A stretch of 64,000 nt of DNA, from the NCBI GenBank assembly GCA_001244265.2, contig LN717261.1, positions 1,999,591-2,063,590 of the forward strand, read 5' to 3'. The position numbers were made by a program, and so were the translations under genes. Source of the stretch: Microbotryum violaceum. Lineage: Eukaryota. Below are positions 1 to 39,175 of this stretch, piece by piece (position 1 is the first letter of the stretch; each line of letters opens with the position of its first letter). Under the pieces are notes generated by a model, which made no database searches, had not been told where the DNA came from, and worked only from the letters and a program-made list of their open reading frames with translations.

Positions 1-70
1 AGTACATCACATTGCAGGTCAACGGTTACGGTGTGAGGTGGCGGCGCGCTCCACGCGCCGCCGAACCTAG
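1..70 (+). mobile_element. Helitron family B 3' terminus (element starts left of the window)
   Basis: GC hairpin GGCGGCGCG-CTCCA-CGCGCCGCC is followed by GAAC-CTAG (67-70). The same terminus recurs at 6717, 14194, 15959, 49878, 53243 and 61588. Confidence 0.85.
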
Positions 71-131
71 TCTTTACCCTAACTAGTTACCCTAACTAGT
101 AAAAAAAAAGTGAGTTAAGGAATGTACCTAA
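71..131 (+). mobile_element. Helitron family A 5' terminus (truncated) with 2 copies of TACCCTAACTAGT
   Basis: Starts with TC directly after the CTAG. It matches the reverse complement of ~5385-5433 and ~6485-6530, which lie upstream of family A RepHel-derived sequence. Confidence 0.7.
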
Positions 132-1268: not shown

Positions 1269-3044
1269 ATCCACGGGAGAGAGAGGGTTCGTGCGCGCAA
1301 GCCTGAATCGGCGCGTCAAATCCTTGCAGCAAAAGCCGAAAAGACCATTAGATATTGAAGGGGCGCAGGTTCCGTTCCGCTTCACTTCGGTCCGAGATTG
1401 GAGCATAGCACGACAACATCATCCCATGCAGGCCTTGAACGATGCTTTCGATTGATCATTGCCACTCACCAACATGAACATGACGATCGCCGAGCTCCTC
1501 GCCTTCGATGTCGCTCCCGCCGACGCGTCTCTTCACATCGAGTTGTCCAAAGACGAGCACACCCAGTACTCGACCTTATCATCTACTCGAGGCCGTTGAG
1601 AAGGCAACTGAAACAGCTTCTCACGACCAATCGTGCGTCTACCAAGCTCAACTATCGAAATTTCGGTCTAAGCTCACGCGTGTTCGGTTCTACACAGCCC
1701 ACACACTTGAAACTTCAACTGCGCCTCAAGTTATCGATGCTCGTGATACCAATTTCTCGCTGAACTGGCCAACCTGATTGCCCATCAAGCTGCTCAAAAG
1801 TGTGGCCACCTCAAGCTGTTCTACTCGAGGGAGGCCGATGGAATCGAGCGACCCAACTCGGGGAGAGGCAGGCGTAGTAGGGGTTAGCAATACAGAGGAA
1901 GGACGCAGTGCAGCACATTCATGCGTCTAGAAAGGGTTGGTACAGTCCATGGGACCACATCGCTGCGAAGACATGGCGGGCACGACAAGGAGCTTTCGCT
2001 GGACTGGAGGTGACCAGATGGACCGAGCGCTCACAACACACGAGGATCCAGAAGAATGTCTATACTGAGGATGGCCGCATTCAAGCGAGTTGTCGCTGAA
2101 TTTAGGAGCGAAGGCAACTGGATCTAATGTTTGGAGAAACAAGCAAACGGAGCACTTGCACAACGCTATCCTCATTTTGGAGCGCTTGACGGCGGAGCTG
2201 TAACCACTACCACAACATCGAAGATCGGATCTCTGATCTGCTTTGGCCTCAAGTGTGGCATGCATTCACTCAGCTGCGATCAAACTGTTTATGGAGAAGA
2301 AGCGCTGTCTATCGGAATTGGTACGTTGTTTTGAGTGGCAGTTGAGGAAGTTCTCGTTTGACACAAGTCTTGTGTCCTACAGTGCGACACATCTACAGCA
2401 AAGTGACAACAAACCACTGCAACCAAGACACGCTTGCCTCGTTGGTTCTACTCTCAAATGTCGTCGTACAGGAGCTTCGCCTCATCAAGAAAACATGCTA
2501 TTCCACACACCTCATTGATGGCACTATGCCGTTCCGCATGATTGATGGTCGACAGGTCATCGAGTCATTAGGCCCGTCAACGACTACATATCGTTCAACC
2601 ACGGACTTTACCTCATCTTACCCGGACGAGCGCCTAATCAGCACGAGCGCACATGCCGAGCAAAGGTTTGCCGCCCTTCGGAGCGTGCAGTGCACGGCCT
2701 GCGAGATGCCGCCGGCAGAACATCTACAAGCCGCACAAATGCCATCGCGGAAACAAGGAGCTTAGCTTCAGCAAAAAGGAAGTCTGAAAACGAAGCAGCG
2801 AGCCAGCCAGCAAAGCAAGGAAGGCTTGTTTGAAGCGTGGAGCCACGCGCAACACCAGCCGAAGCGACGCGCGCCGCAAGCCACTTCGGATAGGCCGCCG
2901 CGCGCCCGCAAACGCTCGGAACGCGTTTTCGAGGACTTTTGAGCGATTTTTGGAGCATGTAGAACACATTTTGATAATATATCCGAGGCGCATGCGAAAT
3001 TTTGACATTTTGGGGCCAAAATAGGGTAAAAAACTTTGACAAAA

Positions 3045-5433
3045 CCAGTGGGAACCCGTTAAATTAACGGGAGGATGTAATTCAAAAAATAGCAGGATAA
3101 TCGAACAGTCTACATGATATCAGCGCAGAGGTTAAGAAAACACAACACGAAGTACAGCAAAGAAACAAAATCCATTCATCTTACATTCATCGCCGAAACA
3201 GCCTGCATGTCGCTTGTTGCCGGATTGGCTTCAAACACTTGTGCAATGAGATCCGGACGGTTGCATGCTTTGTCATTCGGCCCCAGTGCAGCCTTGATTT
3301 CCGGTGCTTCGGGGACGTACGACATTGTGATGAGCAGCGGAGGCTTTCCATGTTTGACAACGCACGCCATCGCATCCTGGTATCGCTGCGTGATGTCGCG
3401 CGGTCTATTCTTGAACGTCGAGCCCAAGGTCATCGAACGTCCAATTGGGTTCGGGGCCAAGCCGTTGATGCCTTGGGTCGTGGTGAGGTGTAGGTTCTCT
3501 TGATGCAACCGGATGTGTAGAGTCGATCGGTCTCGACTTGGAGTATATCCATAAATCACAGACCCCAGGAAGGGACGTTGGGTGCAATGCGGGATTGAGA
3601 AGTACTCGTCGCCTTTGGCAAGTAGTGCGCAAAGAATTGTGAACGCGAGACTCGCCACCTCGACCCCTTTACTGGACCTTTGTCCTAGGTGTTCAAAAGT
3701 TCAATGTCAGTCTGTGCTTGCGCCTTAAACAGAATGGAACATCAGAGAAAGAGCCGAAGACGCGTACGTTCGCCATCACCATCCTCTTCGTCCCCTTCCT
3801 CGCGGTCTTCATCCTCATCATCGCGGTCTTTGTCCTCCTCGTTCGTCATCCAGACCGAGACCGGAAGCACCTCGCGCAATTGGACACCATTGTCGATCTG
3901 CTCTCGGTTTCTGGCGATGGGCGGCCCGGCTTGGTGGAACCCGCAAAGAGGAGTGTTGAGGTGGGAGCTATTTTCCTCTGCGGCGAAGAGTGTTGGGTAC
4001 CGGAGAGGCATCGCAGACGGATGGAGCGAGCTGACGACTTGGTACTTGGGTCGACCATCGGGACATCGATGACTGCGCACCTGGACAATAAGTTCTTGCG
4101 GTCCACGATCTCCCGTGTTGGTGTCGGAATCGCAGATAAGCATCGTCATTTCCGTGCTCGGCGGAGGAAGGTTGTGGGTGCGTCGGTCTCGGCCTGGTGG
4201 TAGACAGAGGCGCAGGACCCACTCTTTGGCCGTATCCCCAGCCTGCGCAAGCTTTGGCCGATGCAAACTCCTTCACAAAGCGGTTTCCGGTACGCGGACT
4301 CGAGCTTGGTCAAAGTAGGCCTTTGTATGCGACTGCCTGCGCCGTTGAGTCCAAGTCGAGTGTCGGTGGCGGCTGGGTCGATCAGCTACGTTTGAGCAAA
4401 GGCTGGAGCGTTGATTGACGACAGGGATCTGGACGCCGAGTCGAGGAGTAAAGCCGATCAAGCACGCGAAACACGCGGGGTCCTAGAATGCCCAGTCGAG
4501 TCTGGTCAAAGTGAGCAGCGAGCAGAGTCAACGACAACGCGTTGTTGTACGACCGGGCGTTCTCGCGCAATGCTATAGCTTCTGTGTGCGTGGGAAGATT
4601 CTTGCACAGTTCAGCATGTGGGTCTACTGCAGACGACGGTTGTTGGACGGAGCAACTGACCGCTATCCGAGCCTTCACGTAGCTGTCGACACTCGGGATT
4701 GTGCCGGAGAGGGGGAGGTAGCTGCACCTTGCCCTGCGAAAACGTGGGGCTTGAGGGGTTCGAGCGCGATTCGAGGCCTGCGCGCTCGCCTTTGCGCGCC
4801 TTTGCGCAGGAGGATGTGGTGGTGGGGTGAGCTCAACGTGCTGCCCATTCTACAAAGCTGTACGGGGGGCGCTCAACACCAAGATCGGTTGAGTTGTTGT
4901 TAATCACGCGCGGGGAGCTGATTCTGTTGATCGGAGCGGGACGAAGAGGAGAATCGAGCAGCGGGGCGCGAGTGTAGCTCGCGCCCGAGACTTACTGACA
5001 CAGACTCACACCGCCAGCGCGCCGCATCACGTGACAGACGACACAGACGTCAGACGTCAGATCGTCAGACGCCAGCCCTCGCGTCGCGCGTCAGGCGGAG
5101 CTCTGCTGTAGAAGCAATATCATGCAAAGCCACGCGCTTGCGGTTCATTAAATGCAATATGAGTGGAAGCATTGGTTTATGTCAGCGAAGAAAAGAAAGG
5201 AAATACTGGGAGCGCTGTAGCTTCGTTGGAACGGCGCGGAAAATACAAAAGTCACCATAGGGCTTGTACATAACTTCTGATCGGAACCCCAACACCACAG
5301 GCAGGTGCGGCAGACACAACAGTATGCTGGTACATCCACCGCAGGCGGCCCGGAGGGCCGCAACCTAGTTAAAAACAGCGATTTTAGGTACATTCCTTAA
5401 CTCACACTTTTTTTTTACTAGTTAGGGTAAAGG
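3045..5433 (-). mobile_element. Internally deleted Helitron family A copy
   Basis: Carries Rep N-terminal fragments homologous to 8200-10080 (HQENLHLTT, RYQDAMACVVKHGKP, RPDLIAQVFEA). The 3' hairpin CCCGTTA..TAACGGG plus CTGG ends at 3045, and the 5' end (C)CTTTACCCTAACTAG is at 5433. Confidence 0.85.
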
Positions 5434-5849
5434 CCAACAAAGGGCGTTTTTCCGCATGCGCCTCTGGCTGGGCTTTCGGGGGTCCTGCTTTCGGGGGTCC
5501 TTGCGGGCAGCGGTCCAACGTCCGGGCGGCCGCAGGCGGGTCGAGCTCTGCCCGCACCTGACAGTTCCGCCACGATGCCCGGAATGACCCACTACGAGTC
5601 GGTTCAAGCTTGCCGACTGGTCAAGATTGGCAAAGAGTCGGTTGAACACGTGTGTCACACTCTTCAGACTCACCCGTGACTTGGGCATGTCGCCGCCGTC
5701 GGCCTATCGCCCTTGGGCTGTGCACGTGATGCTGGCTTCGCAGCCGTCGCGCCGGATGCTGACCCTTGTCGCGCCCCGATCTCGTTCATGCAGGTGTCCG
5801 CCACCGAGTTCCCTGGCCACTACCCTCACGAAGAACATAACCCCCCCCC

Positions 5850-6716
5850 CATGGTACGGCGCTACCCTCGCGCCCAAGACTTGGCGAGGTTGCGATGGCC
5901 CTCCCTGAGTCCCTGGCGACCTTGGGACCGGGACATAGCAGCGAGGGTTTGTTCTTGAATGAGTGTCACTAAGATTGGATGAGAGTGAGAGGGAGAAAGG
6001 AAAGGTTCGAGGGAGTGGCGCAGGATTATTTACGTGGTTTGATTTGTTGTTCAGCCCCTAATGCCGCTGGTCGAATGCCATACGGGCAAATTGGTTGTTC
6101 AGCCCCTAATGCCGCTGGTCGACTGCCGGAATGACACTGACACCGCCGGCGCACCGCATCACGTGACAAACGCCAGCCCTCGCCTCGCGTGTCAGGCAGA
6201 GCGCTGCTGTAGAAGCAATATCATGCAAAGCCACGCGCTTGCGGTTCATTAAATACCATATGAGTGGAAGCATTGTTTTATGTCAGCGAAAAAAAGAAGG
6301 AAAATACTGGGAGCGCTGTAGCTTCGTTGGAACGGCGCGGAAAGTACAAAAGTCACCACAGCGCTTGTACATGACTTTTGATCGGAACATGAACACCACA
6401 GGCAGGTGCGGCAGACACAACAGTATGCTGGTACATCCACCACAGGCGGTCCGGAGGGCCGCAACCTAGTTAAAAACAGCGATTTTAGGTACATTCCTTA
6501 ACCCACACTTTTTTTTTACTAGTTAGGGTAACTAGTTAGGGTAACTAGTTAGGGTAACTAGTTAGGGTAACTAGTTAGGGTAACTAGTTAGGGTAACTAG
6601 TTAGGGTAACTAGTTAGGGTAACTAGTTAGGGTAACTAGTTAGGGTAACTAGTTAGGGTAACTAGTTAGGGTAACTAGTTAGGGTAACTAGTTAGGGTAA
6701 CTAGTTAGGGTAACTA
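5850..6716 (-). mobile_element. Helitron family A 5' fragment ending in the expanded 13-mer array
   Basis: 5850-6160 is the reverse complement of ~7917-8170, and 6170-6530 is nearly identical to 5070-5429. Confidence 0.8.
6518..6712. repeat. Perfect tandem array (ACTAGTTAGGGTA)x15, containing TTAGGG
   Basis: 195 bp equals 15 x 13 bp, read directly from the sequence. Confidence 0.97.
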
Positions 6717-6770
6717 CTAGGTTCGGCGGCGCGCTCCGCGCGCCACCTCACATTGAGAATCAGCAGTTCC
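6717..6770 (-). mobile_element. Helitron family B 3' terminus
   Basis: The minus strand reads AACTGCTGATTCTCAATGTGAGGTGGCGCGCGGAGCGCGCCGCCGAACCTAG. Confidence 0.85.
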
Positions 6771-6794
6771 TTGTGCAATGAATTGTCTTTGTTG

Positions 6795-7860
6795 TCACGG
6801 TCTTATACGCACTAGTCCGAGTCGTGTACCACACGGCAGGCAGTAGCGCTCAGATCCTGATGTAGTCATCGCAATTACAGTCATAATTTGCCGATGATTA
6901 AGGATAGCTGCCGCAAAGATGAAACAGAAGGTCAGTGAGAAAACGAAATCCAGAGTCCGAAGCAGCAGATGACATACTTGTATCACATGAATGAAAAGTT
7001 CCACCGCGAGTGATTCCCAGGCGAATTGCACCACATCGACCGCTATCCGAGGTGGTTGTTGGCGGGCTTGCTGACCCGCACCGGGGGGAAGCGTTGCCCA
7101 TTCTGCGTCGACACCGACCACTAGTTTCCCTTCTGGGGGGATGTTGTCCGCCATGACTTTCATCAGACGAGTCAAAGCGTACGGTGATTGCACCAAGGTC
7201 GGCGTTATCCCCGGTGGCATCTTGAGAATGCCGTATTCGGAGCCAGAGTGCGACTGGACCCGTGGCGCGAGCGACGGTATCTTGCTCCTCAAGGAAAGGC
7301 CATCGGTGTCGGGTTGATCTGTGTAACAGATCGTGGGTGCCTCGTTACCATACAACTCTAGATGCTTGGTCATCGCTTCGAGCGAAGTCTCGAATGCCGA
7401 GTGGCCCTTTGTTGAGGTAAGCACGTGGGCGCGCACTTCGCCATATTCGTTCCCGACCATGAGCAGTGCGATGAAGGGGGGACCCCTTCAACCTTGGCAA
7501 TCTGCTTCGGGACCTGCAACGATCGGGCGCGGGGCATTAGCTGCTTGCGCTACTGGCCAAGGGCAAGCACGGTTGGTGTTGTAAAGCTAACGTTACCTTG
7601 TAACTGTGATCGATGGTCTTAATTTTGCAGGGCTTTAGCGATTCAGCATGACTGAAAAGCGTTTCTTGTCTGAAAGACCAGCAGAACATAATCAGTAAAC
7701 ACGACATCTACGTAACGTTACATCCAACCAAGCACTCACTTTCTCATCACGGAATCATAGAACTCCTGAAGAACCTGAGAATTCGGTACGTGGCCGCAAT
7801 TACCCGTCGGATCTTCCCAGTCTCCGAGAGCAGGGTACAAGCTAGTTGATAGCAAGTCAG
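6795..7860 (-). pseudogene. Fragment of a Mutator-like DDE transposase fused to a DEDD 3'-5' exonuclease start
   Basis: The spliced reading gives ...GHVPNSQVLQEFYDSV / KTIDHSYK|VPKQIAKVEG...LLMVGNEYGEVRAHVLTSTKGHS...CYTDQPD...PSL...LVVGVDAEW...VDVVQFAW. DxE is an ExoI motif. The family assignment comes from motif memory. Confidence 0.55.
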
Positions 7861-7916
7861 CTTCACGCGCCAAGATTGCCGATCGATAGTTCACCTCGAG
7901 TCGGTCATGAGCGGCG

Positions 7917-10900
7917 CGATGCGGTGCGCCGGCGGTGGAGTGTCATTCCGGCAGTCGACCAGCGGCATTAGGGGCTGAACAACAGATCAAACCACGTAAA
8001 TAATCCTGCGCCACTCCCTCGAACCTTTCCTTTCTCCCTCCCACTCTCATCCAATTTTAGTGACACTCATTCAAGCACAAACCTTCGCTACTATGCCCTG
8101 GTCCCAAGGTCGCCAGGGAGGGCCATCGCAACCTCGCCAAGTCTTGGGCGCGAGGATAGCGCCGTACCATGGGCCAGCTCGAGCGCCCGCTGCTGGGCGC
8201 CCCGCGGCTCGACCCTCTTCGTCCCGCACCGATCAACAGAATCAGCCCCCCGCGCGTCATGACAACAATGCAACCGATCTTGGCATTGCGACACGTATAC
8301 GAGCCCGCCGTGCAGCTGTGCAGAACGGACAGCGTCGTCAGCGCGATGGCCAACTCGACGCTGGGCTCGCCCCACCACCACCACCTCCGCAAAGGCGAGT
8401 GCGCCGGGCTCGAATCGCGCTCAAACCCCTCAAGCCCCACGTTTCGATCCGCGACGACCTCCGCAGACGGCCGTGTGCACCCACTGCAAGGCTCGGCACT
8501 GGGAGTGCGAAAGGTCGAAGTCGACCAGACACTTCAGCGCGTGCTGCTCGCAGGGCAAGGTGCGGCTACCTCCCCCTCCCCAGCCCAATCTCGAGTATCG
8601 GCAGCTTCTTCAAGGCTCGGATAGCGGTCAGTTGCTCCGTCCAACAACGTTCGTCTGCAGTAGACTCACATGCTGAACTGTTCTACCCACCCACACAGAA
8701 GCGGTTGCATTCCGCGAGAATGCCCGGTCGTACAACAACGCGTTGTCGTTCACTTCGCTCGCTGCCCTCTGGGACCAAACTCAAGTGGGCACGCTAGGAC
8801 CCCCGTGTTTCGCGTGTTTGGTCGCCTCTACCATCGACTCGGCGCCCTGATCCCTGCCGTGACTCAACGCCCAACCTTTGCTCAAACATGGCTCATCGAC
8901 CCGGCCGAGGCCACCGACACTCGACTTGGACCCGACGGCGCAGACAGTCGCATTCAAAGATCAACGCTGACCAAGCTCGAGTCCATGTTGCGCACCGGCA
9001 ATCGCTTTGTGAGGGAGTTCGCATCGGCCAAAGCCCGCGCGGGTTGGGATACGGCCAAAGAGTGGGTCCTGCGCCTCTGCCTACCACCAGGCCGAGACCG
9101 ACGCACCCACAACCTTCCTACGTCAAGCACGGAAATGGCGATGCTTCTCTGCGATTCCGACACCAACACGGGAGATCGTGGACCGCAAGACCTTATTCTC
9201 CAGGTGCACGGTGATCGATGTCCCGATGGTCGGCCCAAGTACCAAATCGTTAGCTCGCTCCATCCGTCTGCGATGCCTCTCCGGTACCCACTACTCTTCC
9301 CGCGGGGGAAGATGGCTTCCACCCCAACATTCCTCTTTGCGGTTTCAACCAAGCTGGGCCGCCCATCGCCAGAAACCGAGAGCAGATCGACAATGGTGTC
9401 CAATTGCGCGAGCTACTTGACGGCCTTGGTCCAGATGAAGAAGACGAAGAGGAGGACGATGAGGATGAAAGCGACGAGGAGGACGAAGAGAATGGTGATG
9501 GTGAACGTAAGCTAAGCGTCTTCGTCTCATTCTCATATACCTCTCTGTTGAGACGCACCCTCAGACTGACATAAATTGTTCGAAAATCTAGGACGAAGAT
9601 CAAACAAGAGGGGTCGAGGTGGATCAACCCGAGTTTCGCGTTCCCAATACTTTGCATATCACTTGCACGAACGCGACGACTACTTCTCCATTCCGCATGT
9701 CACCCAGCGTCTCTTCCTCGAGTTCGTGATTGACGGATACTCCCAAGTCGAGACCGATCGACTCAACTACATCCGGTTGCATCAAGAAAGTCTGCGCCTT
9801 ACCACGGCCCAAGGCATCACCGACGCTGTTGCCAACGGCCTGACCCCGGATCAAATTGGACGTTCGGTGATTTTGGGCTCGACGTTCAAGAATAGCCCGC
9901 GCGAGATCACGCAGCGCTACCAAGATGCGATGGCTTGCGTCGTCAAATATGGAAAGCCTTGGCTGTTCATCACGGTGACGTGCAACCCCGAATGGCCGGA
10001 AATCAAGGCTGCACTGGGGCCGAACGACAAAGCATGCAACCGTTCGGATCTCATTGCACGAGTGTTTGAAGCCAAGCTGAACCGACTCTGCGACGACGTT
10101 TTTGGCAACAAGCAACGTGCAGGCTGTTTTGGCGTGGTTCTGACGCATACACATGTGATTGAGTATCAGAAGCGGGGCCTGCCACATGCCCATATCCTCA
10201 TCACCCTCGCGCCGGACGATCATCCTTTGTCGACGGAAGCGATCGACAAGATGATCTCGGCCGAGATACCCGATCCTTCGCGCTATCCTGATCTCCACGA
10301 GACCGTCACAAAGCACATGCTGCATGGCAAGTGTGGCGGAAACTCGACTCAGCCCTGCATGGAGAAGGATAAGTACGGTAATCCGAGGTGCAAGCGCCAT
10401 TTTCCTCGCGAACAGAACCCCCACACCCGCATGCACCCTGAAGGCTACCCGTTGTATCGCCGACGCTTTCGCCACGCCGTTGTCAAGGGGGTGTTATCTA
10501 CAACGATGGTGACTGCGTGTCGTACTCGCCTTATCTCTGCGCCAAGTACAATGCGCATATCAATGTGGAGGCTGTGACAACGGTCGGCGCGATCAAGTAC
10601 CTCTTCAAGTATGTGTACAAAGGTCCGGATCGAGCTGTGGCGCGTGTTGAGCGTGCAGCGAACGGTGAAGGGGCTCGCGAGGACGAACCGGTTCGAGATG
10701 AGATCAACGAGTTCGTCGAAGGTCGCTACATCAGTGCTCCAGAAGCGGTCCACCGCCTATTCGGATTCTCGGTCGGTAGAGTGTGGCCACCCGTCAACCG
10801 ACTACCGGTCCATCTGGAGAATCAACAATCTGTGCAGATCAATCCCAATGAACCGCTGCCCCTCGACACTCCGCCCACTCGCTCCAAACTGACCGGCTTC

Positions 10901-13356
10901 TTCGACCTGTGCGCTGCAGCTCCCGACGGCGAGCTCACTACCACGTTGCTCTACACGAATGTGCCGCGCTACTACTCCTGGAATAAGGAGAAGTTGCGCT
11001 GGAAACGCCGAGTCCATGATTGCAATGTCATTGGACGAATCTACACCGTCCCACTGCGTAGTGGGGAGCGCTTTTACCTCAGACTGCTCCTCGAGGTCGT
11101 CATGGGCCCGACATCGTTTGCGGACCTGCTCATGTTCGAAGACGTCGTGTATCCTTCCTATCGCGCCGCTTGCGCCGCTCGCGGACTTCTCGCCGACGAT
11201 GGCGAGCATCACATCTGTCTCAGGGAAGCTGCACAGATTGAAACCGGTGACCAACTACGCCGATTATTCGTGTTCATGCTCATCCATGCGACGGTTGCCA
11301 ACCCACCAGCTTTGCTGGATCGTCACTTTGCTTCTCTTAGCGACGATGCCCGTTATCACATCGAACGCTATGAAGACGTGCCCGTCAACGATCAAACCAT
11401 CCGCCTGTGGACCCTCAACAAGATTGGTCTCCTCCTTGCGGCAAACGATCAAACTTTGGCCTTCTTTGATCTTCCCGAGCTGACCGAGGACAAAGTGCGG
11501 CTGTTTGATCGTCTCGAGGAACGGCTTCCCCGTTTTGATCGCCAGCAATGCGCGCAAGATGCCGAAGCGGCGCATGCCCGTCTGAACCACGACCAATGAA
11601 TTGCATTTGACGAGTGCTTTGCGCGGTCGAGCTCGATGTCGTCGATCAGATGCGCGACAACAACCTTGGGCCGCAGCATGTGTTTTTCCTGCTAGCACCT
11701 GGGGGTACTGGCAAGACTTTTGTGGAAAATGCCCTTCTCGATACTGTGCGAGCTCGAGGCGACCAAGCGATTGCGGTGGCGTCGTCCGGAGTAGCGGCGT
11801 TGCTTCTCAAGGGAGGACACACGGCGCATTCAACTTTTCGAATCCCACTCGACACCTTGCCAACCTCGACGTGTCCAGTCGACAGGGAGAGTGATCTCGC
11901 GCTGATGCTGCGTACCACCAAGCTCATCATTTGGGATGAAGCCCCAATGGCGCATCGATTCGCGGTGGAAGCTGTCGACCGTTTACTGCGTGATCTCCGA
12001 GAGACCGAGGAGCACTTCGGCGGGGTGACAATGATCTTTGCGGGTCAGTTGGGCTCTTCCGCCTCCGCTCTGAACAGCGGCATGCTAACGAGGTTTCCAA
12101 TTTGTAGGGGACTTTCGCCAGTGCCTTCCTGTTGTTCCCAAAGGAACTCCCGGTCAAATCGTCGATGCATCCCTCATCAAGGCAGACTTCTGGCGCGACG
12201 TTTGTGTCTTGCGACTTACCGAGAACATGCGTCTCAGCTCGAACGCTGATGCGATAGACGAGGCTCATTTGGCTCGAACGCGCGACTTTGCGGAATGGCT
12301 ACTCACCGTGGGAGATGGAACTGCCAACATGCACCCATACAACAAGATTGCAGTACGTTTGGCTCCCCTCTTTTACCCAACCAACCGACACTAAGACCCC
12401 TTCTATCCGTTTCGCAGCTGCCTGATTACCTGCTGCTTCCGGACGGTCAAAGAACGGCCGAAGAGTTGATCAACTTTGTCTACCCCGGTTTAAGGACCGT
12501 GAACAAGGAGTCCCTCGAAAACCTGATTCAGCTGTTCTCACGTCAGGCAATCCTAGCTCCGCATAATGCAACGGTCGATCGCATCAATGCCAAGCTGCTG
12601 GAAGAGTTCAATGGCGACTACATCGAGTATCGCAGCGCAGACGAGGTCGTTGAGGCAGGCGAAACTGGGGTGGAATGGCGCCGGAACTGATTTCGCCAGA
12701 GTATCTACATTCAATCAACCCATCCAACTTCCCGCGCATCACTTGCGTCTCAAGGAAGGGATCCCCGTCGTTCTTCTTCGCAATTTGGACCCAGACGCGG
12801 GCCTCTGCAACGGTACCCGCCTGATCGTGTCGCACGCAAGATCGAGAGTCATTCAAGCCATCATCTTGACCGGAGATCGAGCGGGCACCACGGTCTTCAT
12901 CCCTCGCGTGCGACTTGAGACAAATGCGACTGGCAGTCGCCAACTTGGTTTCACTATGCGCCGGCTCCAATTCCCGCTTCGCGTTGCCTTGGCCATGACG
13001 ATCAACAAAGCCCAAGGTCAATCACTTGATTGTGTTGGCGTCCATCTCTCCCTACATCCCGTCTTCACTCATGGGCAGCTGTATGTGGCATTGTCTCAAG
13101 CCATGAGTGTTGATCGAATCAAGGTGCTACTGCCCTCTCGCGACCCCGCCGATGATGACGACGACCTACAAGCCGTTGATCGAGCGGCAGCCGCAGCCAC
13201 CGCGACCCCAAACCCAGTATTCCGCTCTGTTCTCAGAGCAATGAATGGGGAATAGTTTTGAAACTGTCCTTTGTATTGTGTGTTTTACCTTCAACTGAGA
13301 TCACGATTCTGCTATTTAATTTTCATCCTCCCGTTAGTCTAACGGGTTCCCACTGG
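7917..13356 (+). mobile_element. Helitron family A, near full length (5' tip missing)
   Basis: Contains RepHel. The 3' hairpin CCCGTTAGTCTAACGGG (13330-13346) is followed by CTGG (13353-13356). Confidence 0.9.
8060..13255 (+). pseudogene. Helitron RepHel (Zn-finger, HUH Rep, PIF1-like SF1 helicase), frameshifted
   Basis: Motifs are CTHCKARHW..CC, FITVTCNPEW, VIEYQKRGLPHAHIL, YLFKYVYKG, GGTGKTF, IIWDEAPM, LTENMR, GLCNGTRL, MTINKAQGQS and FTHGQLYVALS. It has several frameshifts, a stop at 11597, and introns at ~9507-9570, ~12044-12107 and ~12353-12417. Confidence 0.95.
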
Positions 13357-14194
13357 CGTGTGCCAATCTTTCAAAAGCAAAACGCAGGGCAGCATGACCA
13401 ACTGACCGGTTCGACTGTAACATCACTGGGGATCCGAAGCAATGCCTTCCCGTTATTCTCAAGTCATCGCCTGCATCAATCGTCGACGCTTGCTTCATGG
13501 AATGCTGACTTCTGGGGGAAGTTGGGGTGCTGCTTGACTTCGTACGGTTGAGAATCCGGGTCATTGGCACACTAAATGTGAGTCTTTACTGCCCTGGCTA
13601 GAGATGGACAACAGCAAGAATAATGATAGTTGCACAACGTCTCGGAGGTCTGAAGGCCAGCAACGACGAAGGCTCGAGCGAGAGCGTTCCGGTCCGGTCC
13701 CACACAGTTTTTCGCCAAACCCTGCCTCTACCGCATCAACATCGACGGATCATTTTATTTCCAGAAGATTTAGGGCACAACAATTGCGGAGACTCCGGGA
13801 AAGGCAGCAAATTTGATTCTATCAATCAATCGCCTCCACCTCAGCCAACGCCCAACGTCCACTCTGTCCCGGTGGATGTCGCCGCAGTCACCAATTGCAC
13901 TGCTTCCACTGCCGGAAAATCAACTTCATCCAATGGATCCACCACCTGTGAACGTTGCGATCTCTCGAAGGTCTCAAGATCAGCAGAGACGTCGTCAACA
14001 GGAAAGTCTTGAGCGAGAGCGTTCCGTTCCGGTCCCGCACAGTTCTCTGCCCGACCCTCCCCTTTGCCAAATCACGACGAATCAGTCCACCTCCAGGAGA
14101 TCAGAAGATAGATGAAAGCAGCGTAGAACCGTAGCCATCTGCAACTGCTGATTCTCAATGTGAGGTGGCGCGCTTCGCGCGCCGCCGAACCTAG
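13357..14194 (+). mobile_element. Helitron family B 3' portion (non-autonomous modules)
   Basis: It consists of inverted copies of the modules at 55130-55640 and 61660-62470, ending in hairpin plus CTAG at 14191-14194. Confidence 0.8.
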
Positions 14195-14319
14195 TGACTT
14201 GGGAATAGCGGGAAGGCGTTCCCTCGGATCCCCTATGATGTTACAGTCCAATCAGTTAGTTGTGCTGCCCTGCGCCTTGCATTTGAAAGATTGGCACATA
14301 CCTGCCAACACAACGGTCA

Positions 14320-14656
14320 CAACAGCAAAATGGCCACGCGCGCGAACCCGCTTAGGGATTCGCCCGAGATTACGCGCGCTTAACAGCGCTTAACGGTGCA
14401 TAAGATGCGCATAAGGACGCATGCGCGCATAAGAGCGCTTATGGACCGCTTTGCGTATGCAAACAAAGCGCGCGAGGAGTCTTAAGCGCGCCGTAAGTGC
14501 GCCGTAAGAGTCCCTTATCTAGGGTACACTTAAGCGACACTTAACGCGCGCGCGGCTTAACGAGTGGTTAAGGGCGCTTAAAAGCAGCTTTAGGCCGCTT
14601 AACGACTGCTTTACGAGGTTTCGCGCGCTTACGCGCGTTTGGCCATTTTGTTGATG
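14320..14656. mobile_element. 337-bp MITE, EnSpm/CACTA-like
   Basis: 17-bp TIRs CAACAGCAAAATGGCCA / CATCAACAAAATGGCCA have 2 mismatches, with a 2-bp TSD CA. The empty site ACGGTCACTCCACC is seen at 62531. Many internal TAAG/CTTA-CGCG subrepeats are present. Confidence 0.8.
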
Positions 14657-14980
14657 CACTCCACCGAACCGAGCCGTGGAATAACGGGAAGGCATTGCTT
14701 CGGATTTCCTGTGATGTTACAGTCCAGCCGGTCATTAGTCATGCTGCCCTGCGTTTTGCTTTTGAAAGTTCGGCACACACCTGCTTACGTGATGGTCACC
14801 CCACCGAACCGAGACGTTGAGGATCTCCCACGGGATGGTGAGCCGCAATTCACGCGGCCAGAGCCCGTTTTCTTGCGTGATTCGTTACAACTATCAGTAT
14901 TCTTGCTGTTGTCCATCTGTAGCTATGGCAGTGAAGACTCACATTTTGTGTCCCATGAACCCGGATTCTCAACCGTACAA

Positions 14981-15805: not shown

Positions 15806-15958
15806 CTAGTGCGGTGGCGCGCTTCGCGCGCCATGACGTCACGCCACGTGGTTTCTCTCGTTCTAGAACGTTCTTTGTCTCGACGTATCCATTTAGTAGT
15901 ATATAATATATAATAATAATAATATATAGTATATAGTATATAGTATATTAGTAGTATA
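15806..15958 (-). mobile_element. 153-bp mini-Helitron (family B 5' end fused directly to a 3' hairpin)
   Basis: The minus strand has a TATAC/TAT microsatellite, then ...CTACTAAATGG...GTGACGTCAT, then GGCGCGCGAAGCGCGCC-ACCGCA-CTAG. Confidence 0.8.
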
Positions 15959-18906
15959 CTAGGTTCGGCGGCGCGCTCCGCGCGCCACCTCACACCGTAA
16001 CCGTTCACCTGCAATGTGATGTACTTCGCTGCGGTACTGCTGAGTAACGCAAGCGTAGTGGTTGAAGTCGGGAGAGGACCGCGCGACGACAATCAAATGC
16101 AAACAGCCATTCTGGGAGCCCGATGATGAGCTCAGACTGCCGTCGAGACCCGCATCGAGTGCGGACCTTTTCATGGATGCCTCCCGACATCGACATCCCT
16201 CACCTGCTATTGCCGGAGCTTCACTATGGAGCTTTGACATGACTCTTCATTTCACCGTACCAAACCGAGCCGTTGACGATCGCACATCTTGCAACATCCT
16301 GTCCACCATCACCGCCAGCGTGTCAAAGGATTGACTTCGTACGGTGATTGCGTTGGATAATCACCTCCACCCCAGCCAACGCCCGATGTCAAATCCCACA
16401 CGCCGCACAGTCACCAATTGCACTGCGCTTGACATCGGGCGTTGGCTGGGGTGGAGGCGATTGTCCAACGCAATCATTTTACCCTGTTCTCCTGGAGGTG
16501 GACTGATTTGTCGTGATTTGGCAAAGGCAGGGCTCGGCAAAGAACTGTGTGGGACCGGACCGGAACGCTCTCGCTCGAGCCTTTCCCGTTAACGATGTTG
16601 TTGCTGGTCTTCAGACCTCCGAGACGTCGTGCAACTACCAGCCTTTCCCGTTGACGATGTCGTTGCTGATCTTCAGACCTCCAAGACGTCGTGCAACTAT
16701 CAGTATTCTTTCTGTTGTCCATCTGTAGCAATGCAGCAGCAGGTCGAGCACCATGTCGTTGATGTGATCCACGCCCAATTTTGCTCGCTCTCGGAAGTAT
16801 TCGACTTCTTCGCCTATCGACATATTGTCCAGTTCGAGCGCGGGGACGGGCTAGCCGTGTCTGATCAACCCGGAGCTGTTCCTTGTGGTCGCCGGCAGGA
16901 GAAGCTCACATGGGAGCCCGATAGTCTTCTGTTTCGTTCGCCAAGCCGTCTCCAACTCCGAACTCCGAAGAGCCAATCTGCAAAGCCCTGTGCCTTTGCC
17001 TGTTCCGTTTCGGCCATGCGGTTTGCAGCGGCCAGAAGAGGCATGTTTGTCTGCGCTCGCACTGTGCCGTTGTTAGCCTAGTATAGGGTCTAAAGGTCAG
17101 GCAAGGACTACCACTTACAGAGAGATCCCCGCAGAAGTCAACATTCATGATGCAAGTGTAAGGCTCGGTTGCCTTACGCTATTTAACCACCCTTCTAATT
17201 TCAATATGCATCTATTGAAATCGTCAGTCTTTTGGACCATGTAACCTAGTCGTGAAGGGCCTGGGGTATTACAGCAAGCGTCGACGATTTGTGTAGGCAA
17301 TGACTTGAGAATAACGGGAAGGCATTGCTTCGGATCCTCTGTGATGTCACAGTCCAACCGGTCAGTTAAGCATGCTGCCCTGCGTTTTGCTTTTGAAAGA
17401 TTGGCACATACCTGCCAACGCGATGGTCACCCCACCTAACTGAGCCGTGGAATAACGGGAAGGCATTGCTTCGGATTTCCTGTGATGTTACAGTCCAACC
17501 GGTCATTAGTCATGCTGCCCCGCGTTTTGCTTTTGAAAGATTGGCACACACCTGCCAACACGACGGTCACTCCAACAAACGGAGCCGTTGAGGATCTGCC
17601 ACGAATGGTGAGCCGCAATTCACGGAACCTGTTTTTTTTTGCGTGATTCGTCCTTTAGAACTATCAGTATTCTTGCTGTTGTCCATTTATAGCAACGTGC
17701 CGCGTCTAAAAAATAATAAAAAAGAGCTCAGTTCATGAAGTTACTCACTCGAATTCGTAGCTATGTTGCATGCGGCAGCCATTTCTTGATCCCGTATTCG
17801 TTGCAGAGCTTCCACGACGACCGCTTCGGATGTCGCGAGCTTGAGGTGGCGATGGGATGAGGTGCGATGGGCAAGGTGTGAAGAGCAGGAGGGAGAAAGA
17901 TGGAGAAGCCTGCGCCTCGGTTTGAACCGGACTCATAGAATGTCGTGGAAGGCCGCGGAACGTCGTGGAGTGAAGGCCCGTGACACGCTGGCGGGGCCCC
18001 TAACGGTGGAATTGGCGCACTGGCCGACGCTACCCGAGGTCCGGAACTGGTTCAAGTGGACGAACGAATCTCAAGCTCGGAGATGAAGAACTGCGGGCCC
18101 GTTGCACTTGCCGTGCGACATTGAGACTGCCTGCTGCCGGTGCAGTTGACTTGACGAACCAGTTTGCGCGACGTCGTCTTGATCGGTTTCGCGCTGCTGC
18201 TTCTGGCGAAGGTATCGTTGCCGCTGAGCTTCGGCGATTGTTCGAGGTTGCTGGCGGCGGCGTCTGTGCGATTAGAGCGGAAGTCGGGTTGGGCGGAGGA
18301 GCGCGAAGGCGGCGGGCATCCATACATTCAAGTTTTTACTGTCCTCATGCGCGAGGTCTGGGCTGATGATTTCCTCCCCCTTTGCACACAGCGCGAAGCA
18401 GCCTCGTTGGCGGCCCTCTCAGCCTCGCGGACGGCGCGCTGACCTCGCTCACATTGGCGACGTCTCGGCTGCCCCTGTCCTCTCCATGAAGATTCGTAGT
18501 GGAGAGTCTTCTGTACGTGAAAGATTACAGATGACATTTCGGCAGTGGCAGGAAGTAGATGCTCGAAGTAACTATGCTACGATGTGGTAGACACGCAAGA
18601 CAGGTCGTCTGAGCCAGAGTCATTGATTTGATGGAAAATGGAACCTCGGCGAACGTAGAGGAAACGGGCTGTCACTGGCCGACCCCTGCTAAAACCGCGG
18701 TAGCTAGCTGGGCCGGGGGGACGCGCTGGACCGAGAAATAGAAAAGTTGAGTATTAATTAGTGTTAAACCTGCGAATCTATTGGAATGAAAGATATTTCT
18801 CTAGCTGCTGATGACGTCACGCCACGTGGTTTGTCTTTTGTTCTAGAAGATTCTTTGTCTCGACGTATCCATTTAGTAGTATATATATATATATATATAT
18901 AGAAGA
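15959..18906 (-). mobile_element. Non-autonomous Helitron family B with both ends
   Basis: 5' TCTTCT(AT)n is at 18906 and the 3' hairpin plus CTAG is at 15959. 16690-17150 is nearly identical to 55590-56070. Confidence 0.8.
17157..17273. mobile_element. 117-bp solo LTR-like insertion
   Basis: Termini are TGTAA...TTACA with TSD GCAAG (17152-17156, 17274-17278). The empty site is at 56061-56075. Confidence 0.8.
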
Positions 18907-18971
18907 ATAGAAGATATACATTTAGCAGTATAGAAGATAAGTTTTAAGGATAAGGATAAGGATTAAGGATT

Positions 18972-20459: not shown

Positions 20460-23400
20460 TCAAAACACGTACATGCGTGGGTCCTTGGTCGAGTAGTACG
20501 CACCGACTAGCTTGTTCACGGCCTCGATCGGAATCACGGCTGGTGTCGTGGGCTCCGTGCGAACAAACGGCATCGACTTGTACAACAGTCGTGCCGGCGG
20601 GTACAGTTCGGCGACAACGGCAAGACGTGAACGCCCGAGCTTGAGTTGCTTGAGTTCGACATGGGGCGGCACCCGTACGATCGCCATGGCTCGACCAACC
20701 GTGAACATCGCTTTACAAGTTTGAGCTCCCGTCGAATCAAACAATGTCGTCACAAAGCAAGACGCCTGCCGCAGGTCGTTGTCGTCTTCACCTTCGCGCC
20801 TTGTCGTCGACAAGTAGTTTCGCTTGGCATTACTGAGCGTGGCACGACCGTAGTGATCCCAGTAAACAACTTCGTCTTCGATGTTTCCGACCAACCCTCT
20901 TATTTTGCCGTCCCCGAACGCCTTTGTCCAAGCTTCGCACTCTCGGTGCCAGTCCTCGCTGGCTCGAGTCTCGACCGGCGAGAAGAGCGTCAAGACCCGT
21001 CCTGGCTCAGGCAGCGACGGTTCGGGCAAAAGCGCTAGCACGAGTGCGGCGAACTCGGGATCGTTGTCCGCCCAGCACTTCTGCTGTTCGCGTATGATGG
21101 TCTGTGAAGCGGTGTCGAAGGCAAACAACCAGTCACGGTCAGCCGCAGGCATCCCGAGCACTTCCCCGCTGCTCTGGGGACTTGCCTTCTTCATCAAGCT
21201 CATGCACGGGCTCACGTTCGAAGTCGCATCCTTCTTGCAGTAGCCAATGACTCACTCGAGCTGCAACTGCGACACAAGGCTGAGGTTACCGACCCGCTTG
21301 ATCCATTCCCCAAGGTGGTGAAGTTTGCAAATGGCCAAGGGCATCGCTTCGACCTGGTCCCCGCTGAATCCGAGATACAGACGCTCTTGCTCTTGTACGA
21401 ACCGGTCGGCGAGCTCGTCAATGGTTTGGATGCGTTCAATGCTGGCGGGGCTGCGGTCGAGCACAAGCCTGACAAAGTCAGCCCAGTGTGCGACGTACTT
21501 GTTGGGCATGCCGGCGTCTTGGAGGACAGCGACGGATCCATTCAACTCAAATTGCAACCACTCGTGAATCTTGTAGCATGTGTTGGCCTTATCTTGAGGG
21601 TTTCACAGGTAGGCTCCGAATGCGCTTGGCGTCGTGACCTGGGCACCTTCAAGCAAAGCCGCAGCGGTGGAGAGGATGTGAGTGCCATCTTTTACGGATC
21701 TCCAGCAGACAGGTGACTTCCACAGTAGAGCGGGAATGTTGTTCCCCAGCAGGTGTGCAATGTCGATTGGGAAGGACCCGGGCACGTCGAACAGTGTCGA
21801 TTTGGCGGCGAGTGGAATCGCTGAGATGCCGAGTTGTGTGCGCACCTTCTTGCTCGCTCGTTCCCTGAGCGTCGGGTTGAAAGCTTTCGAAATTTGTGCC
21901 TCGTATCGCGTCAGGGTTCTGGGCCTGGGACGGGGAGCACCGTTGTACGGGTAGTAGCCCCTGATCGCTCGATGGACATTGACTTGTTTGCGCACGGTCA
22001 ATGGGGGCACGGCCTTTCGCCTTGTTCGAGGTCGCTCGTGGCCGTCTCCATCCCCGTCGTTGTCGTCGCCGTCCCCGTCACTGTTGTCGCCGCCGTCATC
22101 TTCGCCGGTGTCCTTTTCTGCGGCTTTCTTCCTGCCCACGCAGCGATCTCCTCTGTATGTTGCTTGGCCGTCTTCGACCATGTAGTGGCCGGCGCCGTTG
22201 GGTTTGGTCGCTGACGGCATCTCGCAGTTATCGCATGGGAAGGTACCGCGGCTCATCGCAAAGCCCGACTGCTTAGCTTGTCCCATAAGATCAGCTAAGA
22301 AGAAAAGGATGTAGCCTCGCCATAGGAACCAGGTGTGATCGATGGAATCAAAAATCCAAATCCCCCTTGCCGCTTCCTCGAACCGCTTCAAGATGATGAA
22401 CGCGAAGCTGTCGAAGTCCGTCGTTGTTGTCGCACATGGGGCAATGACGAGGACGTAGGTATTGTCGCGGCGATATCGACCGGACTCGATTGGGACGTTG
22501 TACAGAGTGACCGTCCATATCCAGAACGAACCCTCTCTGTACTCCTTCACCAGCGCACCGTCGGTCGACAGACCAAAGAATCCGTTTTGTTCGTCATTGA
22601 AGACGCCTGCCTCAAATGCACGTGCCAGAGCTTGACCAGACGAGACGTCGCTGTAGCCGCCGGCATGCGGATCGCCTCGAGCCTTGCGAAGACTGATGAA
22701 CCGCGTCATCTCCTCGTGCAGCGAGCGAAGCATTTTGGCCTGCTGCTGGCAGCCATACATGGCCTTGATCCGCGGGACCGGGTCCAGGAAGACTGACTGC
22801 TTTCGAGGTCTTCGTTGGAGATTGCCGCAGCGAGTCCTGATCGTCTTGTATCTCGGTTCGGTGCATCGTTCCGTGATCGTCTTCTTCTTCTTTGTCTCGG
22901 GGTCGGTGTCCACGCGTTTGTGCAAAGTTCCACACACCTCTTGGTCAGCGTGGGGGCCGACGAATGCCACGTGTCCCTCGATACAGATGTCGAACCATTC
23001 GGCTTCGAGCTGTAATGCTGTCTGGATGAACTCCGCCATCCCCCGCATCGACATACATCGCCGAGGATCCACACCTTTTTGCACATTTGCTTCTTGAATT
23101 AGATGAAGGTACTGCTTATCGGACATGTCGCTGTCCAGTGCGCAGATGAAGCAGCGTAGCGACAGCATCTGTTCAGGACTAAAGTCCGATAGTCTGATTC
23201 GAGGAGTAGGTGGACCAGAGGGTGGCTGCGGAGGAGGTTTGTACGAGGTCGACAGTCACAGGCGTGGAGGAAGCAGCGACAGCGAAATTGTGTCGAGCCA
23301 CCGCCTGAGATCTGAGGGATACGACGAAACAGTGACCAGAATGTCAGAAACTTCGAATAGATGTCACAGCTCGTTATACTCACTGAGGAACTCGGCGGCA
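20460..23400 (-). pseudogene. CACTA/EnSpm (Transposase_21/Tnp2-like) transposase, interrupted reading frame
   Basis: Motifs are DICIEGH..F, FGLSTDG, SFWIWTVTLYNVP, DFDSF, GIWIFD, FLADLMG, FPCDNC, PIDIAHLL and KLHHLGEWIKRVGNL. The frame is split by frameshifts or introns. Confidence 0.85.
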
Positions 23401-28055: not shown

Positions 28056-28169
28056 ACCGTTCCTTAGAGCCGGCCTGACAGGAGGACAGACGTGAATTGC
28101 CGACGCCATTCTGGCTCATTTAGAATTCTCGTGCTTTCTTACTGCTCGTGGGCCACCCAAGCCTCGGCG

Positions 28170-30507
28170 ATGGCGCTCGACAGGTACTGCACCTCCATCG
28201 ATGTTTCACTGCAGACCTTATCGGCATCGCTCTATCCGGACGAGACACTGCTACAAGCCCAGGACGGCGTCGGCCTCTACGATGGGTCAGTGCAGTTACC
28301 CCCCACTTTCTCTATGGAGCGAGCGATCATCGGGAAGCTGACCCCACCGCACGGCAACGCTCGCAGCAAGGAAAAATCGCCCAACCACTTTGCTGGTCGA
28401 CTGCATCTCACGAGCCATCGACTGCTGTTCGTCGCGTCGCACAAGCCGCACCGGTGCTCGCTCGCCCTCGACCTCGCGCACGTAAGACAGACCGAGTACT
28501 ACGCCGGTTTCCTCAAGTCCAGCCCCAAGATCACTCTTCTCTTCGGATCACCCGATGCAGCGGCCACATCGATCAATGGCACCACCGCCGCCACCACCGC
28601 TGCCGGGTTCCTCTCGTCGAGTTCTGCCTCGAGCCAATCCGCCGCTCTGACCACGTCAGCCTCGACCTCGGCGCCGTCCCCACTGCCCGCCGGTTCAATC
28701 GCCTCCCCTACACCAACGTCATCGAGTGCTAGTGGCCGACGCACGTGGATATGTCGCGTGTGTGGCATGTCCAATATATCCTCGATCAAATGCTCGCTCT
28801 GCGGCATCACCCGCGACAAACTCATCACCTCGAGCAGTCAATCCGCCTCCCTCACCGCAGCGGCCTCAGCTCCCTCCCCGTCTGCCTCATTTCCCGCCAG
28901 TCCTGCTCCATCTTCCCCCGCTCTTCGGTCCGTCGCATCTCGGACAGACTGTTCTCAATCGTCAACACCTCCTCCACTACCACCCTTACCTGCTTCGCTT
29001 CTTGGCCCCACCTCGCAGCAGAGGCCCGACGCCGAAAACTATGTCCCTGACCCAGCCGCCCTAAATTTGGTCGACGGCAAGCTCCCCTGCCCCGTCTGCA
29101 CCTTTCTGAACCATCACTCCATGTCAAGATGTGAGCTGTGTGACTCGCCTCTGCCTTCGCTTCGCCCGGCCCCAACCTTGAGCGCGCCGAGAAGAGGCTC
29201 CTTGTCGACCTCGAGGCCCTCGACCCCGGACTCTCTCGCATCGTCGAACGACCACTTTATGCGCCTGAGCTTTCGAACCGGCGGCGAACGCGAGTTCTAC
29301 AACGCACTCAAGGAAGCCCTGGCCAGGAAAGCTTGGGACTGGCAAAGTGCAAATGCACTGCTCCGACCGTCCAAGTCGAGCAACGGGTCGTCCGAGGCGC
29401 GAGCGCTCGGGGCGATCAATGAGCGAGCGGGTGGGATTGGTAGGCGCTTTTCCGACGAGGCTGATTCCAAATTCCAAACCAAGCGAGTTTCGAGGCTAAC
29501 TTGTTAGTGGCTTTCTTCATCCCTCTTCTACTCACAGTTGCCATCATGAAATCGTTCACATTGGAAGCAGCCGATCGGGACCGATCGCTCGAATCGGCCC
29601 TGAAGGATCTCCAGTCGCTCATGTCCAAAGCCAAAGACATGATCCAGCTCGCGCAATCGATCAACGAGCGACTTTCACAGGCGAACGCTGGCAGCACCTC
29701 TACCGCCGGAACCAGCACTCCTGCGGTGTCCACGTCGGAGAAGACAGCGGCATCTTCTTTCGCGACCTCGTCCCTCGCTTCCTTGGGTTTGATCGAGTTG
29801 GCCATCACTCCAGATCTCATCGACGAAAGTCAAAGGTACCATGAAGAGATTGCCAAAGAACTCGGAACGCTGTTGAATGGCTCCGACGCCGTCGTCAGGC
29901 GGAGAGGTGTCGTCGGGCTGGACGAAGCGTGGTGCGCTTGGAACAGGGCGCGAGGTGTGGGTGAGTGTCGAGTGATACGCCTCGGATGGTACCAGATATG
30001 TGATCCTAAACCTGAGCGCTGTCATGAGTCTCTCGCATCCGGCTTGTGTGCCTCTCCTCTCCAGCCCTCATCTCACCGAAAGATTTTCGACTCGCGACCC
30101 CATACCTACCGATGCACACATCGCCGATGCTTTCACTTCTCACGCTCCCAAGTGGTCTCACAATTCTGCACACCTCACGATACTCGCTCCCCGTTTTTAG
30201 TCAACGGATTTGGGACCTATTGGACCTCGAGCAAGCCATTTCCCTCTCGAGCCGCCAGTCCCCGGACGAACCTTTGCGGATGCAAGGTCTATCGACGATC
30301 GAGATCGCTCAATCCGACGACGAGTCGCATGGAGGGGGAGGCGAAGGTATTGGTATTGGTTTGGTCAAAGAGTTGTTGGAGATGGTCGAGACGTGGGGCG
30401 AGATTTGTCGAGACCAAGGTGGCGCCGGCGGGGGCGAGAGTGAGGTCAGATGGTTTAGGAACTACTTTGAGAGCGCAGGGCGAGATTGGGATGGAACCAA
30501 ATTTTGA
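28170..30507 (+). CDS. VPS36: ESCRT-II subunit Vps36 (GLUE domain with two NZF zinc fingers, EAP30 domain), intron-containing
   Basis: The GLUE domain shows QDGVGLYDG, GRLHLTSHRLLF and GFLKSSPKITL. The NZF fingers are WICRVC..N..C..C and CPVCTFLNHHSMSRCELCD. EAP30 motifs are MRLSFRTGG, ALKDLQSLMSKAKDMI, WCAWNRARGV and LISPKDF. Confidence 0.93.
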
Positions 30508-30803
30508 GCGGTCGGGAAAGGATAGACTTTGTTGTAAGTTGCACAAACAGAAGTCGTCGACTTGTCTGTGCATGTCTGCATAATTGCGCGCGATGTCTCA
30601 GCCCACTGACATCGTTGCAGTGACTGCTCTCGACACTCGAAGAGTTGGACTGAGGCGTCGCGGCGCATGACGTGTTGGTACTGGGCATCTACCCCTGCTG
30701 ACCTTTGTGAGTCGTTATCAATGCTTCATTTGGAGCCACCTCGGGGACCTTGAGTAAAACTCCGCAAGTCCCGTGACCTGCCCCCACGGACGAACTATGC
30801 CTT

Positions 30804-31025
30804 TGTCATCGTGTACACTACATTGCAGGGGCGCTCTCAACTCCAGCATGCGGAGATTGGGGGATGCGAACTCGGGCGCGCTCGCGCTTCGCGCTCGGAC
30901 CTCTTTAGATTCTGACTTAGACTACCCGAGGCCGCGACTAGCGCGGCTCTCTCTCTCTCTTCCCTTAACGTTCCCTATCCTCTTCTACTCGGTATCTTCG
31001 TTTGCTCACTGCGCTGCTCCTCACA
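30804..31025. mobile_element. Solo LTR upstream of the deacetylase gene
   Basis: TG...CA termini with perfect TSD GCCTT (30799-30803, 31026-31030). Confidence 0.9.
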
Positions 31026-31188
31026 GCCTTAGCTTCGTGAATCGCGGTGCTGTGCTGAGCGGTGTCCGTTGCCGGATCTCGGCGGTGCCTCCAAGTCGGC
31101 GGACCGAGCTCTTGAATCCTCGCTTCTTTATTCACTCTTTCGCTGCTGTCCATCGACGACAAGCCGGCCCTGGCGGACCGCCGTGACC

Positions 31189-34265
<3,077 letters not shown>

Positions 34266-34308
34266 CTATGAGATCAAGATTGCAGAAGGAAGACAAGAGC
34301 GATTTCTA

Positions 34309-39175
<4,867 letters not shown>

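Follow-up and report, generated by a model that had tools for sequence, protein, structure and literature searches.

Tandem reiteration of the first 13 nucleotides of a Helitron at its 5' end in Microbotryum

In a 64-kb stretch of Microbotryum DNA (hereafter, the window, meaning the whole stretch that was analysed), we found that an array of 15 perfect 13-nt units is correctly placed at the 5' end of a Helitron, family A, and is a real feature of the assembly. Its origin is plausibly linked to the transposase. The explanation that we prefer, to which we assign a probability of about 0.55, is that a stutter seeded by the transposase at the Helitron A start was followed by growth through slippage, and that the TTAGGG letters in the unit are incidental and have no telomere role. 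Helitrons are known carriers and spreaders of satellites, and the question addressed here is how the first repeat units originate.

Placement of the array at the Helitron A terminus

An exact search of the 64-kb window for the 13-mer gave 18 matches, and none were found in 100 shuffles. The matches fall in three copies of the same head, with two units at 75-100 (plus strand, copy 1), one at 5417-5429 (minus strand, copy 2) and 15 perfect units at 6518-6712 (minus strand, copy 3), exactly as the original prediction had counted them. Every unit contains the telomere hexamer (TTAGGG/CCCTAA) and CTAG^T (^ marks a joint), as it had also noted, and its proposal that the 13-mer is the 5' terminus of Helitron family A was supported. 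The family A features of the window are:

74..131, plus strand: copy 1 of the head, two units followed by 32 nt common to copies 2 and 3; the sequence after it is unrelated and ends in a 29-bp end of repeat F type at 782-810
3045..5430, minus strand: deleted Helitron A derivative with a one-unit head at 5430, the 5' block and Rep-derived sequence (PF14214 at 3176-3697)
5848..6517, minus strand: remainder of copy 3, made up of the A-run, the head, a 365-bp 5' block and the leader; it stops at 5848
6518..6716, minus strand: the array, in which the first 13 nt of Helitron A (TTACCCTAACTAG on the element strand) are reiterated as 15 perfect units, with a 3-nt partial unit (TAG)
7915..13356, plus strand: Helitron A with a broken RepHel, its first ~430 nt missing and its right end a hairpin and CTGG at 13356

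The unit corresponds to nt 1-13 of Helitron A: it opens with the mapped start (TT) and closes with the first CTAG, which is followed by T. The unit joints in the array are all CTAG^TT. TRF reported 15.3 copies at 100% over 6518-6716. In copy 3 the periodic run reaches 3 nt beyond the terminus, and the 3 nt that precede TTACCC vary among the three head copies (TCT, CCT and TAG). The duplication in copy 1 could have started only at 74 or 75, which is the mapped terminus, and its microhomology is 1 nt; beyond the 45-47 nt over which copy 1 can be aligned to the other heads, its sequence is unrelated to theirs. In copy 3, the 5' block is 94% identical to 5066-5430 and the leader 92-96% identical to 7915-8173. 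The statement that two of the copies run directly into RepHel-derived sequence thus needed modification: copy 2 does reach sequence shared with RepHel (4969 downward), but only after a 5' block of ~460 nt, and copy 3 enters the leader but stops there at 5848.

The array is enclosed by inverted arms (5848-6163 and 7915-8173, 92-96%), such that copy 3 is a head without a body and the copy at 7915 a body without a head. Inverting the 1.75-kb spacer would restore one complete Helitron A with a 15-unit head; either orientation of the spacer between these arms requires two breaks. Elsewhere in the window, a perfect 79-bp tandem repeat (3.8 copies) occupies 971-1267, and its unit recurs once, within a related repeat (30795-31027).

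The number of 15 units is that of the assembly sequence only, and an assembly artefact, with fewer units at the true locus, was therefore considered. The best public runs contain 0.77 of the sampled words from 5400-7900, word shares not being counted as evidence. An artefact seems improbable to us because another copy in the window has two units, because the contig consensus described below indicates extra units elsewhere, and because an array of 199 bp is short for a contig of >1.8 Mb.

The family A RepHel (~8985-13258) contains Helitron_like_N, PIF1 and Pif1_2B domains (PF14214, PF05970 and PF21530 in Pfam, at 9570-13255) and is 98% identical to a 1584-aa protein of M. silenes-dioicae. Its Rep motif 2 reads EYQKRGLPH (IEYQKRGLPHAHIL) at 10161, and the Y2 motif is at 10595. 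The residue between G and P in motif 2 is L, not S, which is the Helitron form; according to the available portion of PMC4067079, L versus S at this position separates Helitrons from Helentrons. The right end, a 7-bp-stem hairpin and CTGG, is present both at 13356 and in the derivative (hairpin at 3055-3071, CTGG at 3045 on the minus strand). Its predicted RepHel, the L in motif 2 and the 3' hairpin with CTRR would make family A a canonical Helitron (HLE1), with the qualification that HLE1 elements begin with TC and the commonest boundary here gives a 5' TT; a TC start would be allowed by copy 1 and by a minority boundary at 5432 (5 contigs, run X2). We rejected a reading of family A as HLE2, in which the 13-mer would be one of a pair of subterminal inverted repeats, on account of Rep motif 2 and the CTGG end, and an exact search of the window found no inverted copy of the 13-mer close to either right end (3045 and 13356). 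The derivative has T on both flanks (T^T) and no target duplication, and its two ends are unlike each other, which argues against a TIR transposon with target site duplications, the outcome that the original prediction had named as contrary to it. In four M. silenes-dioicae models (P0006, P0012, P0016 and P0029), out of 22 tested hits with Microbotryum names, the 5' block continues without a change of orientation into the leader of RepHel; thus, the block is the 5' part of Helitron A.

We mapped the left terminus by aligning contigs from four of 20 listed public runs (X1, X2, X8 and X10) to 4960-5840. Depth in the A block was tens to >100-fold above that of the adjoining single-copy stretch (in X1, column depths of 2,800-40,000 versus ~69 beside it), depth not being equal to copy number. 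Among the best 24 of 176 loose-end rows, the best supported ends lay behind 5430, with 15 (X1), 18 (X2) and 13 (X8) contigs, and X10, a 454-era run, had no row at 5430 among these 24. Agreement among the flanks behind 5430 was 0.39-0.43, compared with 0.40-0.44 for simulated unrelated flanks, and their consensus opens with T. These loose ends with unrelated flanks indicate that the element-strand start is TTACCC, probably after an A. The preceding A fits one consensus letter (T), which alone backs an A^T target, and the sole complete derivative lies in T^T. The 16-nt TC...CTAG start proposed in the original prediction is found in only one of the three copies, and the commonest boundary replaces it with TTACCC. 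This corrects the 5' end (TT) of an abundant Microbotryum Helitron, and annotation tools based on TC would miss such a start.

When the consensus of the 5430 loose ends was compared with the array unit that follows, 9 (X1), 6 (X2) and 10 (X8) of 14 letters agreed. In simulations, an absence of extra units was rejected for X1 and X8 (P of at most 0.002), the X2 consensus fits such an absence (P 0.06-0.13), and the best simulated fit was ~2-4 contigs carrying an extra (second) unit. The three runs have loci in common and are not independent, so they count as one line of evidence, which weakly indicates that extra units are present at a few other A heads and that most heads have one unit. In addition, X1, X2 and X8 each yielded one single-copy contig with a joint from 5425 back to 5390 and 22 letters that resemble degenerate units, possibly an older, decayed head repeat. 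Metagenome contigs that were scanned for the dimer or the terminus gave four loci, two of them identical; only one (L002) had a BLAST match to the window, over 24-26 nt of repeat, and this was taken as chance.

Within the A 5' block, 62 nt inside the left end, an inverted hairpin with AACCTAG at 5346..5368 (plus strand), and likewise at 6447-6469, looks like a captured, B-like Helitron right end. It could serve as a terminator for opposite-strand events. As a candidate for the true A end, the inverted hairpin and CTAG at 5368 was rejected, there being no loose-end row at that position among the best 24 of 176.

Neighbouring elements and other repeated starts

The elements beside the heads, and the heads of a second RepHel family used here as a control (family D), are:

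32..70, plus strand: family B right end of another subtype, 3 nt ahead of copy 1
5431..5487, plus strand: repeat F arm and 29-bp end; the identical 29 bp lies at 782-810, and together with 2983-3044 it brackets the A derivative
6717..6768, minus strand: family B right end, a GC hairpin and AACCTAG, 3 nt ahead of the array
15890..15958, minus strand: head of family D in which TATACT starts occur five times (15958, 15947, 15940, 15933 and 15903); a B end directly precedes it, and TTAGGG is absent
18870..18937, minus strand: head of family D in which TCTTC starts occur three times (18937, 18914 and 18906), with a TA run; TTAGGG is absent

Both multi-unit copies abut a family B CTAG, as had been reported, each lying 3 nt behind a hairpin and CTAG (ends at 70, plus strand, and 6717, minus strand). 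These two B ends are of different subtypes, and five of the nine B-type right ends in the window directly precede an A or D head. The frame at 6798-7487, beside the B end, had no Pfam match, and no left end was located for this B copy. Family D, whose RepHel occupies ~56600-61100 (minus strand), is represented in the window by four heads. Starts are repeated in two of the four and a third has a TCTA run; the family D heads lack TTAGGG, and their repeats lack a CTAG end. Repeated starts and head-to-tail stacking are thus common in the window, and the TTAGGG-free starts of family D together with the B-end stacking show that both are independent of the hexamer. The family D repeats are of low complexity, and plain slippage could suffice for them. 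A ~140-bp tandem and dispersed repeat (56095-56675, 17309-17588, 62400-62800, 14195-14840 and 13355-13530) is a fragment of the family D helicase gene (FGGLTVVLAG region) and thus a satellite from Helitron coding sequence.

Repeat F has arms at 655-781 and 2930-3044 with GACATTTT motifs, and in the public contigs it shows high depth and varied flanks at 5486/5488. It may be a TIR element; the F ends in the window are right-facing ones only. The end of repeat F is duplicated as well (a perfect 15-mer, twice, at 5472-5501).

We considered whether the head is native to an arm of F, a small inverted-repeat element, ~57 nt inside its end, so that A borrowed the head or rides inside F. Such an origin would account for the smaller groups of contig breaks at the F end (5486/5488, 4-6 contigs each per run), for the contigs that cover both head and F arm, for copy 1 as a head without an A body that ends in an F end, and for the F-like sequence on both flanks of the derivative (alpha arm versus 2925-3044: 0 of 2000 shuffles as good). 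We judge it unlikely, because contig breaks are commoner at 5430 than at the F end, the similarity of head and F arm is not significant, the derivative lacks a target duplication, and the block runs into RepHel in the four sister-species models. The narrower idea that the A head descended from the F arm was dropped: 76 of 2000 shuffles did as well, and 50 of 2100 stretches of the window came within 2 points of the score.

Origin of the array and of its telomere letters

The two-unit copy 1 contains a duplication that begins at the mapped boundary and ends in CTAG, which is the form of a Helitron end-to-end junction. In the available portions of the Helraiser reports (PMC4778049, PMC5876387), the 5' end is joined precisely to CTAG-3', the left end is required and the right end dispensable, and internal ends such as CTTG are used when the hairpin is missing. 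Because of the register of copy 1 and this joining behaviour, the first extra unit is best explained as an aborted start rejoined at CTAG, or as an A copy or stub inserted there. In the first case, RepHel would nick the start and remain on the 5' T, the freed 3'-OH would prime recopying of the start, and the CTAG-3' end 13 nt in, ahead of the A9 run, would be joined to the bound 5' T. In the second, an A copy or stub would have inserted at a CTAG site. The outcome would be one extra unit with a CTAG^TT joint. From two units onward, slippage or unequal exchange, aided by the quasi-palindrome, would extend the array; repeated transposase rounds are an alternative for this step. Growth from two to 15 units would thus not require the transposase.

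Several observations count against a stutter. The hairpin is absent before the internal CTAG, the periodicity in copy 3 continues for 3 nt beyond the terminus, and the duplicated end of repeat F means that terminal duplication is not Helitron-specific here. The proposal that nicking or termination at the first CTAG built the array fared accordingly: the bounds of the unit (the terminus and the first CTAG^T) fit a transposase-linked origin, whereas termination at CTAG is unnecessary, since family D has repeated starts that lack a CTAG end.

A possible alternative, to which we give a minor share of our confidence, involves the host only. Polymerase stalling at A9/T9 with fold-back or slippage in the palindromic TAACTAGTTA would have made every duplication, the match to the Helitron end being a by-product of phase. 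Quasi-palindromic repeats slip easily, and the array is a quasi-palindrome (TAACTAGTTA and GGG) whose MFE is -43 kcal/mol, versus -13.9 (sd 12.6) for arrays of shuffled units, 8 of 300 shuffles being as stable. Perfect tandem duplications also occur nearby (the 79-mer at 971-1267 and the 15-mer at the repeat F end), and the B end ahead of the head offers a second CTAG/TAG as microhomology. The first duplication in copy 1 fits this poorly, having only 1 nt of microhomology and starting exactly at the mapped terminus. If slippage alone was responsible, the array is an ordinary minisatellite at a transposon end.

A more far-reaching version of the preferred explanation holds that the transposase writes arrays de novo through cycles of nicking, 13-nt recopying and CTAG rejoining, one junction per cycle, and that repeated starts are a general mark of Helitron left ends in Microbotryum. 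We put it forward tentatively and consider it rather doubtful; if true, the stutter would be a transposase-driven route to minisatellite birth. The unit, which extends exactly from the nick site to the first CTAG, offers a small and inexpensive substrate with which to ask whether a transposase can seed repeats by abortive initiation.

The original prediction also suggested that such element-built arrays could be bound by telomere proteins or act as seeds for telomere addition. The telomere repeat of Microbotryum is TTAGGG (PMC4469406, PMC10502011, available portions), and the chance of the hexamer in a given 13-nt terminus is 0.2-0.4% (1.2% in shuffled units). A coincidence of 0.2-1% is low for a single test but is expected when many termini are scanned. 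According to the accessible text of PMC7744550, UmTay1 and UmTrf2 recognise GGGTTA and require two to three copies, a one-copy probe being unbound, and Tay1 of U. maydis tolerates gaps between GGGTTA units. The array is not a tandem telomere hexamer: it has 15 TTAGGG but no GGGTTA on either strand, no TAACCC and no TTAGGGTTA, each TTAGGG being followed by TAA. One contig end is >1.8 Mb away and the other no less than 57 kb away, so the array is interstitial and falls outside the 20 kb by which the subtelomere is defined in this genus (PMC10502011, in the part available). Moreover, most heads apparently have one unit. Thus, a telomere function of the array is unlikely on the letters and position of the array and on the similar repeated starts of the TTAGGG-free family D, and the TTAGGG letters look coincidental. 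We consider both the binding of telomere proteins and the seeding of telomere addition by such arrays very improbable, and the stronger form of the stutter, in which arrays would also act as telomere mimics, is likewise given almost no weight.

Known systems and the rest of the window

Repeats at Helitron ends have already been described, and the comparisons that follow refer to the available portions of the cited reports. Helraiser/Helibat1 and family A both have a RepHel with HUH Rep and PIF1, a 3' hairpin ~10 nt ahead of CTRR and, for family A in its one complete derivative, no target duplication (PMC4778049, PMC5876387). The unit joints of the array share the form of the Helraiser RTS-to-LTS circle junction, but family A has a 5' TT and Helraiser TC, and the Helraiser junctions join whole elements rather than a 13-nt left-end stub. 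Duplicated Helitron ends are also seen in Xenopus, where HelenXT233 carries its left terminus twice, as a direct repeat (PMC11417382), and Heli2Xen has 166-bp minisatellites at both ends, in 2-7 copies (PMC12001565). Both are HLE2 elements, unlike the HLE1-type family A, whose 13-nt unit is bounded by the terminus and the first CTAG. The DINE-1/HINE Helentrons carry 12-15-bp palindromic subterminal repeats and microsatellites (PMC4067079) and resemble family A in having a short palindromic terminal motif, internal tandem repeats and, as far as the T^T site of the A derivative indicates, a T-rich target; family A differs in its L, not S, in motif 2, its lack of an inverted 13-mer at the right end and its CTGG end. 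A proto-Helentron of Phytophthora has a 5' TT like family A and a 3' CTAG but is HLE2 by its protein, in contrast to the HLE1 motif of A (PMC11417382).

Paramecium Helitrons have ends beside telomere-type letters, as here, but these are true tandem host telomere repeats that flank both ends at chromosome ends (PMC13085455, available portion), whereas the unit described here belongs to the element, its hexamer is non-tandem and the array is interstitial. Tandem arrays with Helitrons are known in plants and bats (cited in PMC5876387, in the portion available), an active wheat Helitron family has ordinary TC/CTAG junctions (accessible text of PMC13286980), and non-canonical telomere arrays occur in Microstromatales, another order (PMC13234504, in part).

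Our literature search, which covered mainly openly accessible papers, found neither this exact 13-nt unit nor a report of a Helitron whose first few bases, between the nick site and the first CTAG, are repeated. A full-text search for the letters of the unit returned unrelated papers only, and the motifs were absent from the searchable supplements of PMC10502011 and PMC4469406; bioRxiv supplements or Repbase may hold a consensus. Helitrons make up ~10% of transposon sequence in Microbotryum, as given in the available portions of the same two papers.

The window also contains a Ty3-type retrotransposon at 34128-39720, with 275-bp direct repeats of 97.8% identity, RT, RNase H, integrase and a chromodomain, and a weak Transposase_21 (CACTA-like) match at 21606-23255 that falls under the Pfam cut-off. 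An AT-rich segment (54000-55100) with several local inverted repeats and T/A runs is unlike the remaining window. Host genes lie amid the transposons, namely Vps36 and a putative mannosyltransferase (28068-30583 and 50832-51779), and over its aligned part the Vps36 fragment matches a protein of Microbotryum lychnidis-dioicae with 100% identity.
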